Counted from the stretch's first letter, positions 10,946 through 33,001 are shown. The stretch: 34,058 nt of DNA from Gammaproteobacteria bacterium (GCA_003972855.1 QOAS01000154.1:1-34058); one strand, 5' to 3'. Notes: generated from the sequence alone by a model not told the origin. A program made the numbers and translations.

Positions 10946-12973
10946 ATGTCTTCCAAAGGAAAACCAACCGTAGCGGTTGGGGTTGATACGGGCGGAACCT
11001 TTACCGATTTCGTATACAAAACCCCCGAGGGGTGGAAGGTTTACAAAACCCTCTCCACCCCCGAAAATCCCGCCAAAGCGATACTTGAGGGGTTAAAGGT
11101 TATAGGCGAAGACCTACCGAGGTATATAGTCCACGGAACGACGGTGGCAACCAACACCCTCTTGGAACGAAAGGGGGCAAAAACCGCCTTCGTAACCAAC
11201 AAAGGTTTCAAGGACATAATAGAGATAGGTCGCCAAAATAGGGAAAGGCTTTACGACCTACACTACCGAAGGGAAAAACCGCTCGTTCCCCGCAACCTTA
11301 GGTTTGAAATTGACTGCAGGGTAAACTCCAAAGGTCAAATCGTCAAAGATATAGACCCCAAAGAGGTTGAGGAGCTAATAGAAAACCTAAAAAAGGAAAG
11401 GGTTGAAGCGGTCGCGGTTTGTTTTCTCTTTTCCTTTTTAAATCCCCAACACGAAAAGTTGGTGGGCAAACTAATTAGGGAAAAACTTAAAGGGGTTTAC
11501 GTATCGGTTTCCTCCGAAATTCTACCCGAATTCAGGGAGTTTGAAAGGGCTTCCACAACGGTGGTAAACGCCTATGTAGCCCCCAAAATGGCAAAGTATG
11601 TAACCACCCTAAAGGAAAGTCTTTCCCCCCAAGATAGGCTCGTAATAATGCAGTCCAGCGGAGGGGTAATTTCCGCGGATACGGTAATTAAAGAACCGGT
11701 TAGAACGGTTTTGAGCGGTCCCGCGGGCGGGGTTGTAGGCGCTTGGAAAATAGGAAAATTGGCGGGCTTTGAAAAGCTTATCACCTTTGACATGGGGGGA
11801 ACTTCAACCGACGTTTCCCTCGTGGACGGAAAACCTTCCTTTACGACGGAAACAAAAATCTCGGGAATTCCGATTAAGGTGCCGATGATAGAAATTCACA
11901 CGGTAGGGGCGGGAGGCGGTTCCATAGTTTGGATTGACGAGGGGGGAGCTTTAAAGGTGGGACCCCAAAGTGCGGGGGCAAACCCGGGTCCGATTTGCTA
12001 CGGCAGGGGTGGAAAGGAGATAACCGTTACCGATACCAACCTCTTTTTGGGAAGGCTTGTCCCCGACCACTTTTTGGGTGGAAATATGAAACTCCACAAC
12101 GAAGGGGTTGAAAGGGCTTTCAAAAACCTCTCGGAGAAACTAAAGGTAGACCCCTACCGGCTGGCGGAAGGAATTTTGGAAATAGCCAATACCAAAATGG
12201 AGGGTGCAATAAGGGTAATCTCCGTTCAAAGGGGTTACAACCCTTCGGAATTTACCCTCGTGAGTTTCGGCGGTGCGGGGGGAATGCACGCGGTCTTTTT
12301 GGCTAAAAAGTTAGGCATACCGAGGGTTTTAATTCCCAAAAATCCGGGACTTTTGTCCGCAATGGGTATGCTTTTGGCAGACCTCGTAAGGGATTACTCC
12401 CTAACCGTTATGCTACCGATTGAGGGAGGGAGGGAACAAGAGCTTTACCGACACCTAAAGGAGCTTTTTAAGACCTTGGAAAACCGCGCGCTGGAGGAAA
12501 TGGAAAGGGAAGGTTTTACCCAGCTCGGTAAAGATCTATTTTTGGAACACTCATTGGACGTAAGGTATAAGGGACAATCCTACGAGGTTAATATTCCCTT
12601 TACCCCTCAAATAAGGGAGGAGTTTGAAAGGGTTTACAAAAACCTTTACGGTTACACCTTGGAAAACCGTCCCCTTGAGGTGGTAAACATCAGGCTCAAA
12701 GCGATAGGCGTAGGAGAGAAACCCCCCTTACCTCCCATAGAGAAGAGCGACGGAAAACTCCTCTCGCGGGCGGTTGTAGGCGAACAAAAAACCTTTTTCG
12801 GAGGAAAAACCTACACCGTAAAGGTTATAGATAGGGATAAACTCCTCGCGGGCGATAGATGGGACTTTCCATCAATAGTGGTTGAATATTCCTCCACTCT
12901 GGTAATCCCACCCGGTTGCTTCGTTAGGGTTGATGAATTTGGAAACCTCATAGTGGAAGTTTTTGAAAATTAA
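10946..12973 (+). CDS. hyuA: Hydantoinase/oxoprolinase family protein, A (HyuA-type) subunit
   Basis: 675 aa. N-terminus VGVDTGGTFTDFV, central FDMGGTSTDVSL and HTVGAGGGSI, typical of the hydantoinase_A/oxoprolinase ATPase fold. Confidence 0.85.
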   Translation: MSSKGKPTVAVGVDTGGTFTDFVYKTPEGWKVYKTLSTPENPAKAILEGLKVIGEDLPRYIVHGTTVATNTLLERKGAKTAFVTNKGFKDIIEIGRQNRERLYDLHYRREKPLVPRNLRFEIDCRVNSKGQIVKDIDPKEVEELIENLKKERVEAVAVCFLFSFLNPQHEKLVGKLIREKLKGVYVSVSSEILPEFREFERASTTVVNAYVAPKMAKYVTTLKESLSPQDRLVIMQSSGGVISADTVIKEPVRTVLSGPAGGVVGAWKIGKLAGFEKLITFDMGGTSTDVSLVDGKPSFTTETKISGIPIKVPMIEIHTVGAGGGSIVWIDEGGALKVGPQSAGANPGPICYGRGGKEITVTDTNLFLGRLVPDHFLGGNMKLHNEGVERAFKNLSEKLKVDPYRLAEGILEIANTKMEGAIRVISVQRGYNPSEFTLVSFGGAGGMHAVFLAKKLGIPRVLIPKNPGLLSAMGMLLADLVRDYSLTVMLPIEGGREQELYRHLKELFKTLENRALEEMEREGFTQLGKDLFLEHSLDVRYKGQSYEVNIPFTPQIREEFERVYKNLYGYTLENRPLEVVNIRLKAIGVGEKPPLPPIEKSDGKLLSRAVVGEQKTFFGGKTYTVKVIDRDKLLAGDRWDFPSIVVEYSSTLVIPPGCFVRVDEFGNLIVEVFEN

Positions 12974-12983
12974 GAAGAAAACA

Positions 12984-14267
12984 TCAAGAAGTTTTTACCT
13001 TTTTTATTTCTTCCTCTAAAGGTGTGGGTTTGTGCAGTAAAAACCCCTGTAGGCTTATTTTATCGGGTTTGAACGAATAAGTTTCAGCTATCTTTCTAAT
13101 TTCGTTAAAGATTTTTTCCGAGGAAATAAACTCGTAAACGATTTCCATGTCTATCTTTTGGGCAAAGAGAGATACCGACTCCACTATTGAGCGGTATATC
13201 TCGGAATTCAACATATTTTGGACTATTTTTCCGTCCAGCTTTATAACCTTGGCGTTTTTATATTTTGCCAGTTCTCCAACCGTTTCAAAATTGGTATATC
13301 CGCTTCCAAAATCGTCAAAAGCGATGGTAAATTTCTTCTCTTGCAGATATTCAAGGATTTGTTTATTGGTAACTATCGCGTATTCGGTTATTTCTAAAAC
13401 CAAATCAATACCAATGTCGTTACAACCGTCTATTAGCTTTATAAGTTCCTCTACAGCGGAGGCGTAACTTAGGGAGGAAGGGTAGATGTTTACAAAAATC
13501 CTGTCGGTTACCAACTTTAAATTTTCTAAATTGTCCCTCACGGTTGAAAGGACAACTTTGTCAAATTCTCCCGTTAGATTTTCCCTCTCAAGATAGGGAA
13601 TAAACAATCCCGCGGAGACATATCCGGAGCGGTCAGGTTTGGGAATTCTCGCCAATATTTCCGCACCTTTCTTTTTAAGCTCCAAATCAAAAATATAGTG
13701 AACGAAAAGGGTAATATCCCTTTCCTTTAAGGCTCGCTCTACATGTTTTCTTAACCTTATTCTTTCCCGTGCCTTATTTAATAACAAGTCCGTTTGTTCC
13801 GTGTAATCTTTAACGAATATAATCTTTTCCGTCGCGTTGCTTTTTAAATCTTCGGTTATTAGTTCAACAATCTCTTCTATCTCTTCATAATGCAAATCAA
13901 AAAGTTTTACGGTGTTTATTTTCCCTATAGCCAATATAGGTTTTCTGACGAAACTAAATTCTTCCCCCGATATGTTTTCGGAAAGAAGGGAGATATCTTT
14001 CCAAATTTTTTCAAACCTTTGGTGAAAATTTTTAGCCAATCCGTTAAAGACCACTTTTATAGATTTCTCATCAAAAAACCAAAAGAGCAAATCTACCTCG
14101 CTACCGTAATTCTTAAAGAGATTAAAAATCTTGCTCCGTATCCTCTCCGATACAGTGATTTCCTCTGGAGATTCAATTATTACCATAAAAATCTTGTTTT
14201 TGTAACCTTTTTCCGACAAATATCTGTATACAAACTCATCCCTATTTTCCAACCAAAAATTTATCAA
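12984..14267 (-). CDS. EAL-domain c-di-GMP phosphodiesterase with a degenerate GGDEF-like N-terminal domain
   Basis: The C-terminal half has GAEILARI (an EAL variant), VNIY, LEITEY, FDDFGSGYTNF, IKLDG, VYEFIS (in place of EGVE, first E kept) and QGFLLHKP. The N-terminal ~170 aa has GGDEF-like spacing but FFDEK instead of GGDEF. Confidence 0.8.
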   Translation of the reverse strand: MINFWLENRDEFVYRYLSEKGYKNKIFMVIIESPEEITVSERIRSKIFNLFKNYGSEVDLLFWFFDEKSIKVVFNGLAKNFHQRFEKIWKDISLLSENISGEEFSFVRKPILAIGKINTVKLFDLHYEEIEEIVELITEDLKSNATEKIIFVKDYTEQTDLLLNKARERIRLRKHVERALKERDITLFVHYIFDLELKKKGAEILARIPKPDRSGYVSAGLFIPYLERENLTGEFDKVVLSTVRDNLENLKLVTDRIFVNIYPSSLSYASAVEELIKLIDGCNDIGIDLVLEITEYAIVTNKQILEYLQEKKFTIAFDDFGSGYTNFETVGELAKYKNAKVIKLDGKIVQNMLNSEIYRSIVESVSLFAQKIDMEIVYEFISSEKIFNEIRKIAETYSFKPDKISLQGFLLHKPTPLEEEIKKVKTS

Positions 14268-14290
14268 CTTATCAAAGTTGTAAAGAAATT

Positions 14291-15019
14291 TTATCCTTCC
14301 TCCACTAAACTTTGAGTAAGGGAAACCGCCCTTTCGTAACAGCCTTTGCTCACTTCCGAAATAATATTTCTTTCCAACGAGTGTATTTTTTTATGGGAGA
14401 ATTTGATTTTTAAAGCCAATTCGTTATTGGAAAAAGCTATAATATCAAAAGCCAAACCGTCCAAAAATTTTCCGACTTCGCATGTAGTATGGGAAATAAC
14501 GGGAACTATTTCCCCTTTGAAAGCTTTCCTTACCGTATCTCGGAAGGTTTCTATCTTCCTTTTCATCAAGTGGTAGATGTATTGGTCGTAGTAAAAATCG
14601 GTTTCTTTTTTAACCGCGGAAGTTAAATAACCGACAAATTCCTCCAAAATATCGGAAATGTAAACTTCGGCGGTTGTTTTTTTTAACAATTCGGAAAACA
14701 ACCATAGCTTCCCGTTGTCCACCTTTAATTGAATATTTTTCAAAACCAAGTCCTCATAAATTTTTACCGAATCGTAAAAGATTTTTCCGTCTATACCCAG
14801 TTCCCTATGCCTTTTGGCTAAGCGGATTAACACTTCTCGGGCTTTTTCTTCGTTATTGTCCTTCAAAGCTTTGAAGACCTCTTTAACCACGGAGGATTGC
14901 CTACTTATTAAGGAATCTATTAAGGCGAAGGAGTTAAAAAATTCACCCGCGTGGTCGTCGTCCAAAAGGATGGAGTAAAATTCCGTAAAAATCTTTCTTA
15001 AAACTTTTTCATCTACCAT
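14291..15019 (-). CDS. Sensor protein: truncated-globin-like N-terminal domain fused to a CZB (chemoreceptor zinc-binding) domain
   Basis: 242 aa counted from ATG 15019. The N-terminus has FTEFYSILLDDDHAGEFF and LAKRHRELGIDGKIFY (FY B9/B10-like, candidate proximal His71). The C-terminus has H150-x29-C180-E-V-G-K-F-x23-H209-KKI-H213, which fits the CZB consensus H..C.[LV]G.[WF]..HxxxH. The gene sits 23 nt upstream of the EAL gene on the same strand. Confidence 0.65.
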   Translation of the reverse strand: MVDEKVLRKIFTEFYSILLDDDHAGEFFNSFALIDSLISRQSSVVKEVFKALKDNNEEKAREVLIRLAKRHRELGIDGKIFYDSVKIYEDLVLKNIQLKVDNGKLWLFSELLKKTTAEVYISDILEEFVGYLTSAVKKETDFYYDQYIYHLMKRKIETFRDTVRKAFKGEIVPVISHTTCEVGKFLDGLAFDIIAFSNNELALKIKFSHKKIHSLERNIISEVSKGCYERAVSLTQSLVEEG

Positions 15020-15124
15020 TTGTGGAATAAAATATAGGTTGCTCCGCCAAATTTTACATATTAATGTCAATACAAGGTGGGTTTTTAATTTAAACGAAAA
15101 CTTGAAGGATAATTCCTCTTTTTA

Positions 15125-16297
15125 ATGTCCCTAAGGGTTTTGAGATTTTTAACCGCCGGTGAGAGTCACGGAAAAGGGCTTGTAGCAATTTTGGAGGGTA
15201 TCCCCGCCAACTTAGAAATTTGTGCGGAGGACATAAATAGGGAACTCGCCCGCAGACAAAGGGGTTACGGAAGGGGCGGGCGAATGAAGATAGAAAAAGA
15301 CCGCGTAGAGTTCATTTCGGGAGTTAGGTTTGGAAAAACCATAGGTTCACCCATAGCAATGGCAATATGGAACAGAGACTACGAGAACTGGAAAGAAAAA
15401 ATGGCAACCGAAGGACAGCCTCCCCAAGGTTATACCCCCTTTACCCGTCCCCGCCCCGGGCATGCAGATTTGGCGGGTGGCATAAAGTATAACCAACGGG
15501 ATTTGAGAAACATACTTGAAAGAAGCTCTGCCAGAGAAACCGCGGCGAGGGTGGCGGTGGGTGCGGTGTGCAAAAAATTTCTTTCAGAGTTTGGAATAAA
15601 GATAGGAAGTTATGTAAGGGTTTTGGGCGGATACAAGGTCAAAGAGATGCCGATAGACCTCTGGAGTAGGCATCTAAAGGCGGAACAATCGGAGGTAAGA
15701 ATACCCAATCCCCTTGAGGACAATTTCGTAAAAACCCTTATAGATAAGGCTAAGGAAAAAGGGGAAACCTTGGGGGGAATAATAGAGGTTTTTGCTTTAA
15801 ACGTGCCACCCGGTTTGGGAAGCCACATTCAGTGGGATAGGAGGTTGGACGGAAGGATAGCCCAAGCGATGATGTCCATTCAGGCTATAAAGGGGGTGGA
15901 AATAGGAAGCGGATTTGAGACGGGGTTTCTACCGGGAAGCAAGGTGATGGACGAAATAGGTTGGAGGGAAGACAAGGGATTTTTCCGATATACCAACCAT
16001 CTCGGCGGAACGGAGGGAGGGATAACCAACGGTCAGCCAATTGTGGTAAGAATTGCAATGAAACCCATTCCCACCCTAATGTCTCCCCTAAGGAGTGTTG
16101 ATATAAATACGAAGGAAGAGGTTAAGGCGAGTCGGGAGCGTTCCGATGTAACCGCCGTTCCCGCCGCGTCGGTGGTTGCGGAGGCGATGTTAGCAATAGT
16201 TTTGGCGGACGCCCTCCTTGAAAAGTTAGGCGGTGACTTTATGGAAGAGGTTAAGGAGAGGTTTGAACTATACCTAAAACACATTAAGAGTTTTTAG
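15125..16297 (+). CDS. aroC: Chorismate synthase
   Basis: 390 aa with FLTAGESHGKGL, RRQRGYGRGGRMKIE, RPGHADLAG, ERSSARETAARVA. Confidence 0.94.
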   Translation: MSLRVLRFLTAGESHGKGLVAILEGIPANLEICAEDINRELARRQRGYGRGGRMKIEKDRVEFISGVRFGKTIGSPIAMAIWNRDYENWKEKMATEGQPPQGYTPFTRPRPGHADLAGGIKYNQRDLRNILERSSARETAARVAVGAVCKKFLSEFGIKIGSYVRVLGGYKVKEMPIDLWSRHLKAEQSEVRIPNPLEDNFVKTLIDKAKEKGETLGGIIEVFALNVPPGLGSHIQWDRRLDGRIAQAMMSIQAIKGVEIGSGFETGFLPGSKVMDEIGWREDKGFFRYTNHLGGTEGGITNGQPIVVRIAMKPIPTLMSPLRSVDINTKEEVKASRERSDVTAVPAASVVAEAMLAIVLADALLEKLGGDFMEEVKERFELYLKHIKSF

Positions 16298-17408: not shown

Positions 17409-17482
17409 GCCCCGGTAGCTCAGGAGGATAGAGCGCGAGATTCCTAATCTCGAGGTCGGGGGTTCGAATCCCCCCCGGGGCA
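17409..17482 (+). tRNA. tRNA-Arg (anticodon CCU), CCA not encoded
   Basis: Manual cloverleaf: acceptor GCCCCGG/CCGGGGC, D stem GCTC/GAGC, anticodon stem CGAGA/TCTCG with loop TTCCTAA, variable AGGTC, T arm GGGGG-TTCGAAT-CCCCC, discriminator A. Total 74 nt. Confidence 0.9.
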
Positions 17483-32038: not shown

Positions 32039-32099
32039 AGCAAACCTCCTATAGGTTTTTAACAATTTTACCGCCTAAAGCTCAAAACTTTCGTCAACT

Positions 32100-33001
32100 T
32101 ACATTTGATAAAAAATCTTTATCCACACCAATTTTGAACTTTATCCACATTGTAAAACCCTTGATAGAGTAAGGTTTTGTGGATTTTTATCCACAGAATA
32201 TCCACACAATTGTAATTTTTGTGGATAAAATACACCTTTTTGAGACTCAATATCAGTTAGCTTGACATTAAATACTAAAATTTAGTTGCTTGACAATAGA
32301 TACAAACAGGGTAAAACTGCAAAAGTTTTAAATAACACAAACTTCAAGATGTCTTCTTTTATCCACACAAATTTTACTTTTGTGGATAAATTCGTGGATA
32401 AATTTTTCGTCTTAGTATAAAGCGGTCTATATTTGTCAAGTTATATCCTTTTATCCACACAAATTATCATTGCGAAAATCTCAATTTTGCGTCGTTCTGA
32501 GCTTACTCTCCCAATGGTTTCAGTGTCAGCAATTGAAATTTGCAAAATGCAAGTCTATTATTAATAATTATTAAAAAAATAAATAGCTATCTATTCGTTT
32601 AATAGCCAGCTATATATACGCCCAGATTAAAAATTTGTTATTTTTTATATTAATAATAGGCGGAATGTCAAGTTTCATCTCGCCTTACTGCGACAAGGGT
32701 TTCCCGTTATCCACACAAATTTTGTTTTTGTGGATAAATGAATGTCAAATTTTACGAAATTCTTGTGGCTGTAAGGCGAAATTTATCCACATTTCAAACT
32801 TGACAACAACGAAATAACTTGACAAAATAATTTCACTTGAGAGGTTCCGAGCCTACTCTCTCAAGGGTTTGGGATTTTTATCCACACAAAAGTTCCTTGT
32901 GTGGAGATACTGAGTCTCAAAATTGCGGAAGTTATTGATAGAGTAAGTCAAACCTATGTGGATAAAAATTCCACTTTTTGTGGACAAAGGAAATTTCCAC
33001 A
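32100..33001. other. Chromosomal replication origin (oriC): two DnaA-box clusters flanking an AT-rich unwinding region
   Basis: There are 12 perfect TTATCCACA/TGTGGATAA 9-mers. Forward boxes start at 32119, 32141, 32187, 32359, 32451, 32707, 32783 and 32878. Reverse boxes start at 32220, 32381, 32729 and 32957. Three boxes have 1 mismatch (32198, 32393, 32979) and three have 2 mismatches (32178, 32900, 32993). There is no credible ORF. Confidence 0.9.
32545..32660. other. AT-rich putative DNA-unwinding element of oriC
   Basis: About 115 bp of very high A+T between the two DnaA-box clusters. ATTAATAAT occurs twice (32570-32578, 32649-32657). Confidence 0.6.

Follow-up and report, generated by a model that had tools for sequence, protein, structure and literature searches.

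Does the pair of neighbouring minus-strand open reading frames (ORFs) at positions 12,984-15,019 of a 34,058-nt contig from a Gammaproteobacteria bacterium (GCA_003972855.1, QOAS01000154.1:1-34058; the whole stretch is hereafter called the window) form a two-gene signalling system, or are the two ORFs parts of one gene? ORF A encodes a putative sensor globin followed by a CZB-type helical bundle, and ORF B encodes a degenerate GGDEF domain followed by an EAL domain predicted to hydrolyse cyclic di-GMP (c-di-GMP). The original prediction, made from the DNA of the window, placed both ORFs correctly and took the pair for a split switch, with the sensor on one protein and the phosphodiesterase (PDE) on another. 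Our analysis indicates that ORFs A and B are very probably the halves of a single gene interrupted by a 1-nt deletion, and not a designed two-gene system. The features that bear on the interruption are as follows.

15019 to 14291, minus strand: ORF A, ATG start, 242 amino acids (aa), TAA stop at 14293-14291; sensor globin plus CZB-type bundle
14267 to 12984, minus strand: ORF B, TTG start, 427 aa; degenerate GGDEF plus EAL
14289..14296, minus strand: frameshift site, GGA TA-A AA in the window against GGT TAT AAA in the sister copy, with the alignment gap at 14292
14214..14338, minus strand: predicted signalling helix, residues 228-269 of the repaired fusion, joining the last CZB helix to the GGDEF-like domain

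One missing base separates ORF A from ORF B

We compared the window with a sister copy of the locus (L001 1227-3018; metagenome-assembled genome [MAG] GCA_024279505.1, contig JAJRRN010000198), which is continuous at the window's break point. The DNA alignment reads GGA TA-A AAT TTC in the window and GGT TAT AAA CTT in the sister copy, with exactly one base, a T, missing from the window. The loss of this T at about 14292 both creates the TAA stop of ORF A and shifts the reading frame by -1. Six-frame translation showed that the frame of ORF B is open for about 33 codons 5' of its TTG, through the stop of ORF A, and that the homologous sequence IKFLYNFDKL is encoded in the B frame directly after the last sense codon of ORF A. 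Since homology continues through the 23-nt gap in the B frame, the apparent spacer is coding sequence of a single interrupted gene. The spacing of 23 nt between the ORFs had been given correctly; its reading as a distance between two genes did not stand, because the gap is coding and the B frame is homologous up to the stop of ORF A.

The protein evidence agrees with the DNA alignment. A search for close relatives of ORF A among 5.8 billion clustered proteins yielded a sole example, P0002, from MAG GCA_024279505.1, which shares 77% identity with ORF A. This protein reads through the position of the stop (...SLVEEGYKLLYNFDKIVNSWWENKEEF...) and goes on as ...SLVEEGYKLLYNFDKIVNSWWENKEEFIYRYLSEKGY..., which is the N-terminus of ORF B. 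Identity to the closest relative ranges over 77-88%, and the junction is continuous there. We then modelled the repaired fusion with AlphaFold2 (AF2), using a 37-sequence alignment, and obtained a confident prediction (pLDDT 90.4, pTM 0.80) in which residues 228-269 form a single unbroken helix. The stop of ORF A falls after residue 242 and the TTG of ORF B corresponds to residue 252 in fusion numbering. As both lie inside helix 228-269, the break is in mid-helix and not at a domain boundary. Trp256 is invariant in a seven-sequence alignment.

We found no Shine-Dalgarno sequence before the TTG of ORF B at 14267 or before the ATG at 14186 that gene callers pick, no promoter-like site between the ORFs on the minus strand, and no terminator-like site between A and B. 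With no ribosome-binding site of its own for ORF B, and with homology that crosses the gene boundary, the pair does not have the makings of a two-gene operon. Nor is the split conserved, as the closest relative is continuous at the junction and about 38 relatives are fused. The covalent link between sensor and output is absent from the window as written, where the TAA at 14293-14291 interrupts it, and present in about 38 relatives of the EAL type and about 16 of the GGDEF type.

A functional fission would retain the idea of two proteins, with A as a free haem/Zn sensor that controls ORF B's product or other c-di-GMP enzymes in trans and with B translated from its own start. We consider this improbable, although several observations speak for it. 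Both ORFs are open, and the haem, zinc and catalytic residues are intact; fragments of BpeGReg comprising the globin and middle domain inhibit motility in vivo and have been proposed to team with other c-di-GMP enzymes (PMC5549716); in a second relative, L091, the split falls close to where the CZB domain ends; and a lone 200-aa N-terminal module occurs in vent metagenomes (L092/L093). However, the break lies within a predicted continuous helix, and the break in L091 lies elsewhere, at about residue 225, in a copy that has no zinc ligands. Initiation of ORF B, without a Shine-Dalgarno sequence or promoter, at the TTG or the ATG would drop part of the helix or strand beta1. A single missing base accounts for the split, and the relatives are continuous where the window is broken. 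The two-gene switch of the original prediction therefore gives way to one gene cut by a 1-nt deletion. The co-occurrence that had been proposed as a check on the pair went the same way: relatives are fused, and the sole other split is at a different residue.

A full-length protein might also be produced from the interrupted sequence by programmed -1 ribosomal frameshifting or transcriptional slippage. The frames share an overlap of about 100 nt, and if reading slipped by -1 at the last sense codon, the product would be exactly as long as the relatives. Nevertheless, we rejected this possibility on the sequence, which has neither a slippery heptamer (no X XXY YYZ in the last 40 nt of ORF A) nor a long homopolymer. 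The run of A is just 4 nt, slippage there cannot remove the in-frame TAA, and the relative, whose sequence is different here, is read through without any shift. Recoding is thus scarcely credible, and we proceed with one gene broken by the loss of a base.

Domains of the repaired protein

We mapped the following domains and residues onto the repaired gene.

14609..15019, minus strand: predicted sensor-globin domain, residues 1-137, by Pfam Protoglobin, Foldseek and hhalign against DosC
14975-14977, minus strand: codon of the putative distal Tyr15
14807-14809, minus strand: codon of the putative proximal His71
14294..14593, minus strand: CZB-type helical bundle, residues 143-242, by profile homology to CZB/DgcZ
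14480-14482, minus strand: codon of C180
14393-14395, minus strand: codon of H209
14381-14383, minus strand: codon of H213
14570-14572, minus strand: codon of H150, a non-canonical position
13806..14195, minus strand: degenerate GGDEF-like domain, fusion residues 276-405, with an alpha/beta fold in the AF2 model
12987..13712, minus strand: EAL phosphodiesterase domain, fusion residues 437-678, by Pfam EAL

The residues named in the original prediction were all confirmed in place: F14/Y15, DDDHAGEFF, H71 in LAKRHRELGIDGKIFY, H150, C180 in CEVGKF, H209-x3-H213 and FFDEK. The profile and structure comparisons that it had suggested matched the globin fold and, at the level of the family profile, recovered CZB homology. 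The Pfam EAL score and the ligand columns conserved across the family show that these features go beyond chance.

The AF2 model of ORF A (pLDDT 95, pTM 0.91) indicates that the N-terminal domain is a 3-on-3 haem-type sensor globin, for which haem binding is predicted. In Foldseek comparisons with the PDB, the top matches were the sensor globins of BpeGReg, AfGcHK and DosC (probability 1.0, target template-modelling [TM] scores 0.52-0.66, E 0.14-0.6). An hhalign comparison of the 60-member family alignment with Escherichia coli DosC gave a probability of 97.4% and an E value of 1e-11 over DosC residues 40-444. It placed Y15 on DosC Y43, the distal Tyr B10, and H71 on DosC H98, the proximal His F8. 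The H71 column is His in 54 of 59 rows of the family alignment and the Y15 column is Tyr in 41 of 57. When the alignment was restricted to the EAL type, the globin part alone aligned with DosC (E 3e-4), and a PDB sequence search with a seven-sequence profile returned the DosC globin alone, at a non-significant E value of 0.16. Pfam Protoglobin (PF11563) matched 32 of 60 family members at E<0.01, with a best value of 6e-13. Pfam Protoglobin aligns from position 32 of its 158, and B10 already sits in the first helix of the model; the N-terminal Z/A helices are therefore absent, which is why the domain is short. The original assignment to the globins held, as fold and profile point to the BpeGReg, AfGcHK and DosC sensor globins, but the alternative offered there of a 2/2 truncated globin did not.

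Residues 143-242 probably form a CZB-type four-helix bundle. Helices in this region of the model span residues 143-167, 181-194, 199-225 and 228 onward. Whole-chain Foldseek of ORF A was dominated by globin matches, and no CZB structure was among those listed. The middle-domain family profile, searched against the PDB, had the DgcZ CZB domain (3T9O) as its first match (E 0.029), and hhalign against DgcZ gave an E value of 6.8e-5, with C180, H209 and H213 aligned to C52, H79 and H83. These columns are conserved in the family: C180 is Cys in 45 of 57 rows, H209 is His in 47 of 56 and H213 is His in 48 of 56. The Pfam CZB family matched 18 of the 60 members (best E 1.9e-20), two of which, P0139 (32.4 bits) and P0164 (31.9 bits), exceeded its cut-off, and one of the 60 matched PF21118, described as the 'DosC CZB-like middle domain'. 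By analogy with DgcZ, the Cys180/His209/His213 site probably holds Zn. The claim of a complete canonical CZB site was right for the domain and for these three ligands, which are in DgcZ register, and wrong for H150, which is two residues off, leaving three of the four ligands canonical. An HxxW motif that would carry the first His ligand in helix 1 is present in many more distant members. We also considered an equivalence of H209-K210 with the pi-helix residues H223-K224 of DosC and rejected it, as hhalign puts DosC H223/K224 right after the CxxG motif.

The domain that follows has the GGDEF fold in the model, and its description as degenerate was borne out: the hairpin position reads WFFDEKS in the window, and K-G-x-S-G-E-F in distant members. 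Foldseek of the repaired-fusion model aligned 430-457 columns to the tandem GGDEF-EAL structures MorA, PA0575, DosP, RbdA and LapD, the best match being MorA 4RNH (E 4e-16). Pfam GGDEF scored 36.8 bits for the family member P0146 at the equivalent position, and PDB profile matches of this region to diguanylate cyclases were weak (E 0.009-0.02). As the domain is undetectable against the single DosC sequence, its identity as GGDEF rests on the model, Foldseek, transitive alignment and these weak PDB matches. None of the 38 EAL-type family members has a GG(D/E)EF motif (searched as [GAS]G[DE]EF), and cyclase activity is accordingly not expected.

The EAL domain was identified by Pfam (PF00563; 102.4 bits, E 3e-29, cut-off 31.3) and resembles the EAL crystal structures PA3825, BifA, MorA and YahA (target TM scores 0.77-0.84, root-mean-square deviation about 3 A). 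The catalytic residues that had been noted in this domain are all present. The complete catalytic and metal-binding set in the window comprises E454, R458, N511, E543, E546, D569, D570, K594, E630 and Q658 (fusion numbering), and these ten positions are invariant or at least 90% conserved across 37 fused relatives. With a complete residue set, the domain is predicted to be catalytically competent.

Several points weigh against these assignments. Searched alone, ORF A reaches 16.9 bits (E 0.0066) with Pfam Protoglobin, under the gathering cut-off of 25, and 13.3 bits (E 0.11) with Pfam CZB (PF13682), under the cut-off of 29.4. The first Zn-ligand His is off its canonical column: Met152 occupies the column of DgcZ H22, and H150 lies two residues upstream, at a position that is Gly in the sister copy; in the nearest intact relatives, a His is found about three residues downstream. 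Finally, the binding of haem and Zn, the PDE activity and the direction in which it is regulated are predictions made by analogy with characterised proteins.

The family is rare, and most of its members are fused

Relatives of ORF A are few. A homologue search with the N-terminal alignment returned the query and P0002 alone, and a HMMER scan of 1.84 billion representatives, with a profile built on the N-terminal module, gave 64 clusters (50% identity). Most members are 640-690 aa long and of the EAL type, and a second group of 398-445 aa is of the GGDEF type. Among the top HMMER matches, ORF A is the lone complete stand-alone protein; in about 38 relatives, all four domains are united in one chain of 640-690 aa. 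Searches with ORF B led to the same kind of protein: its relatives P0005-P0009 are 622-696 aa long, share 32-42% identity with it, cover 72-99% of it and are collinear with the repaired A plus B along their whole length. The fused homologues are lone genes amid housekeeping genes, without a partner gene. Those members of the cluster of P0008, a paralogue described below, that carry names are labelled Aquificales or Aquificaceae, and other family members come from hydrothermal-vent metagenomes.

Three further observations concern the make-up of the family. A 200-aa protein, P0142, found in hydrothermal-vent metagenomes (L092 4001-4603 and L093 350-952), consists of the globin and the first part of the middle domain. 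It has no EAL or GGDEF gene downstream and may be a lone remnant or a genuine stand-alone module. One family member also matches Bac_globin (2/2 haemoglobin; E 1.4e-32) and one matches Hemerythrin (E 1.2e-11). P0143 (817 aa) and P0171 (807 aa) are unusually long, with the family module beginning at about residue 140; if the Bac_globin and Hemerythrin matches sit in these two proteins, some relatives would have a second O2-binding domain ahead of the sensor globin.

A real mutation is favoured over an assembly error

We think, with moderate confidence, that the missing T reflects a real inactivating mutation of recent date rather than an assembly error. The ratio of non-synonymous to synonymous change (dN/dS) is about 0.1-0.12, the catalytic and ligand residues are all intact, and the deletion is the lone lesion in 2 kb; we take the lesion to be recent on these grounds. 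The deletion lies outside any long homopolymer (TATAAA to TAAAA). The other large ORFs of the window are uninterrupted, the genes that we spot-checked are full length, and there is no second visible interruption in 34 kb.

Other copies of these genes have decayed as well. Although the sister copy L001 is continuous at the window's break point, it has lesions of its own: a 3-nt deletion, a 2-nt frameshift deletion at window positions 14149-14150, and a 240-nt in-frame deletion, corresponding to window 13727-13966, that takes out half of the GGDEF-like domain. The L001 copy is an independent pseudogene. The same MAG holds an intact 679-aa paralogue, P0008 (L088 2800-4839), which is flanked by tyrS and a gene for a tRNA U5-methyltransferase. 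At this locus in MAG contigs with an 'Aquifex aeolicus' label (L085 and L087 4528-5336), a frameshifted remnant covers no more than residues 375-675. Taking together the decay of L001 and the paralogue's loss of its N-terminal 374 residues, the loss of these genes is a real trend. A frameshift also splits a metagenomic orthologue of P0009 (L091 2157-4078). The break, placed near residue 207 or 225, comes before the last CZB helix, so that this copy loses the fourth helix of its bundle, and all three of its zinc ligands are replaced (C to F, H to R and H to Q).

Some evidence tells against a real inactivating lesion. A single-base assembly error is an unlikely but serious alternative source of the missing T. 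If that were the case, the organism would carry an intact 678-aa gene for a globin, CZB, degenerate GGDEF and EAL protein, and the two ORFs would still be one gene. The same lone lesion, intact functional residues and dN/dS of about 0.1 fit such an error, and the sequence resembles a metagenomic or MAG contig, a kind of source in which artefacts or population variants do occur, as shown by L091 and a split FtsZ. FtsZ is split into two genes in the very contig that holds the split L091 relative, so that this contig is error-prone or its genome is decaying. A dN/dS of 0.12 with intact residues is equally compatible with a gene that is still functional, being either intact in reality or tolerated in two pieces. 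Furthermore, since truncated BpeGReg with the globin and middle domain only still affects motility in vivo (PMC5549716), an orphan A would not necessarily be inert. Against an artefact stand the position of the missing base outside a long homopolymer, the lack of visible interruptions in other genes of the window, and the unambiguous decay of both the sister copy, with its 240-nt deletion, and the paralogue. We judge the artefact to be the less probable origin and retain the recent mutation.

The divergence between the window and L001 is unevenly distributed. Flanking DNA and the 105-nt intergenic region upstream match L001 at 94-95% identity; a block from about 14945 to about 13550, entered abruptly, is 63-83% identical, and identity recovers to 91-95% inside the EAL domain. 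At four-fold degenerate sites, ORF A has diverged by 0.44 and the EAL domain by 0.25, compared with 0.12-0.16 for the flanks. Neutral decay as the cause of this divergence was rejected, as synonymous divergence is several times the non-synonymous divergence. Because synonymous change far exceeds non-synonymous change, block 13550-14945 resembles an imported recombination tract, and its sharp bounds over the sensor half suggest a recombination tract or a mosaic allele from a divergent source.

A model for the intact protein

The product of the intact gene would be a cytoplasmic globin-coupled sensor (GCS) of about 678 aa, with a globin, a CZB four-helix bundle, a long signalling helix, a degenerate GGDEF domain and an EAL domain, as typified by the relatives P0005, P0006 and P0126. 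By analogy with GCS proteins including DosC and BpeGReg, and with DosP and DgcZ, it would be a dimer in which His71 coordinates the haem and Tyr15 faces it from the distal side. On binding O2, NO or CO, the globin would change, and this change would be relayed through the CZB bundle and helix 228-269 to the degenerate GGDEF-EAL part, setting the rate of c-di-GMP hydrolysis. Zn at Cys180/His209/His213 would make the relay stiffer and might let the protein respond to Zn or thiol oxidants as well, as in DgcZ; alternatively, the Zn site may be purely structural. For the whole protein, the originally proposed function as an O2- or redox-responsive device for c-di-GMP hydrolysis is plausible by the same analogies. 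In the window as written, the deletion at about 14292 uncouples the sensor from the enzyme. Expression would yield an orphan sensor of 242 aa, accompanied at best by a degenerate GGDEF-EAL fragment that is unregulated and poorly initiated.

Comparison with known sensors

The combination of a globin with a CZB domain had been thought undescribed. This novelty fails because a globin with a CZB-like domain and c-di-GMP output is already catalogued. A globin, a middle domain and GGDEF make up the textbook globin-coupled diguanylate cyclase (PMC7033309, PMC5549716). A survey of CZB proteins lists globin among the partner domains and includes CZB-GGDEF-EAL and EAL-CZB classes (PMC8262984). In Acidithiobacillus, Protoglobin-GGDEF-EAL-CZB (AFE_1712), GCS-EAL and GCS-GGDEF-EAL proteins have been catalogued (PMC6416229).

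The closest counterparts are DosC (DgcO/YddV), BpeGReg, PccGCS and HemDGC, which have the same globin, with Tyr B10 and His F8, a CZB-like middle domain (PF21118) and the GGDEF fold. The layout of DosC is shared exactly by the family sub-group of 398-445 aa, which has an intact GGEEF. Four differences separate the window protein from these sensors. DosC has no zinc ligands in its middle domain, whereas the window family keeps the Cys and HxxxH. The output of DosC-type proteins is synthesis, whereas the degenerate GGDEF and active-looking EAL of the window predict hydrolysis. The window globin, unlike DosC-type globins, lacks the N-terminal Z/A helices, and the window gene is broken.

E. coli DosP (PdeO) likewise joins a haem sensor to a degenerate GGDEF and an EAL domain and follows the logic of gas-regulated c-di-GMP hydrolysis. 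Its structure (9CMF) aligns with the degenerate GGDEF-EAL part of our model (E 3e-15), but its sensor is a haem-PAS domain instead of a globin, and it has no CZB. The CZB domains of DgcZ (YdeH) and Helicobacter pylori TlpD are likewise four-helix bundles with Cys (CxxG) and HxxxH. At the column of DgcZ H22, however, the window protein has Met, with H150 two residues upstream; and in the DgcZ/TlpD systems CZB is the sole N-terminal sensor, whereas in the window it would be an internal relay between globin and output. Proteins of the AFE_1712 type have the same four domain families in one polypeptide, with CZB at the C-terminus and not between globin and GGDEF as in the window; this likeness is one of Pfam-annotated domain content. 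Vibrio fluvialis has a globin-coupled HD-GYP phosphodiesterase that is activated by O2-bound haem (Kitanishi 2024, cited in PMC13492106). This GCS also hydrolyses c-di-GMP, with HD-GYP rather than a degenerate GGDEF-EAL output, and no CZB is described in that citing account. The searchable literature yielded no globin-coupled sensor with EAL output whose biochemistry has been characterised.

The pair in the window thus belongs to a known class of sensors, as the damaged copy of one of its rare variants. Three features distinguish the family: a CZB domain with zinc ligands in the middle-domain position of a GCS, a degenerate GGDEF-EAL output and a shortened globin; the retained zinc ligands and the PDE output are mildly new. 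That the intact family is the first GCS with a true zinc-site middle domain, integrating O2 and Zn or oxidant signals into PDE control, is a tentative proposal, which we hold to be possible while leaning slightly against it.

Genomic surroundings

The interrupted gene lies between two plus-strand genes.

10946-12973, plus strand: hydantoinase-like gene, adjoining the ORF B side
15125-16297, plus strand: chorismate synthase gene, adjoining the ORF A side

A TTG at 15070 is an alternative, longer start for ORF A. The GC content of 12984-15019 is 0.361, against 0.448 for the remaining window, a difference of about 9 points. Intact family members are merely 3-4 points under their flanks, and the extra AT-richness is also found in the sister copy L001 (GC 0.385-0.393). 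We considered recent horizontal transfer on the basis of low GC and did not find the argument decisive, given that intact relatives are also under their flanks. Elsewhere in the window, tRNA genes at 352-423 and 17409-17482 on the plus strand are the sole Rfam matches, and a region of about 900 nt at 32066-32950 is AT-rich (GC 0.32), with no ORF of at least 90 aa, no Rfam match and no tandem repeat.

Implications for annotation and for the family

The annotation should treat the two ORFs as a single gene, frameshifted or a pseudogene, whose product is a globin-coupled c-di-GMP phosphodiesterase, and not as a hypothetical protein plus an EAL protein or as a two-component module. Were the fission tolerated after all, the locus would be a natural globin-coupled sensor that works without a covalently attached output.

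In this family, the enigmatic 'middle domain' of DosC-type sensors appears as a CZB domain that keeps Cys, His and His as its putative zinc ligands, which joins two lines of research. The family supplies a globin-coupled sensor with EAL output and a thermostable system in which to ask whether the middle domain is a second input, for Zn or oxidants, or a relay only. That these genes have decayed repeatedly and independently in Aquifex-like genomes suggests that the lineage is shedding O2-linked control of c-di-GMP.

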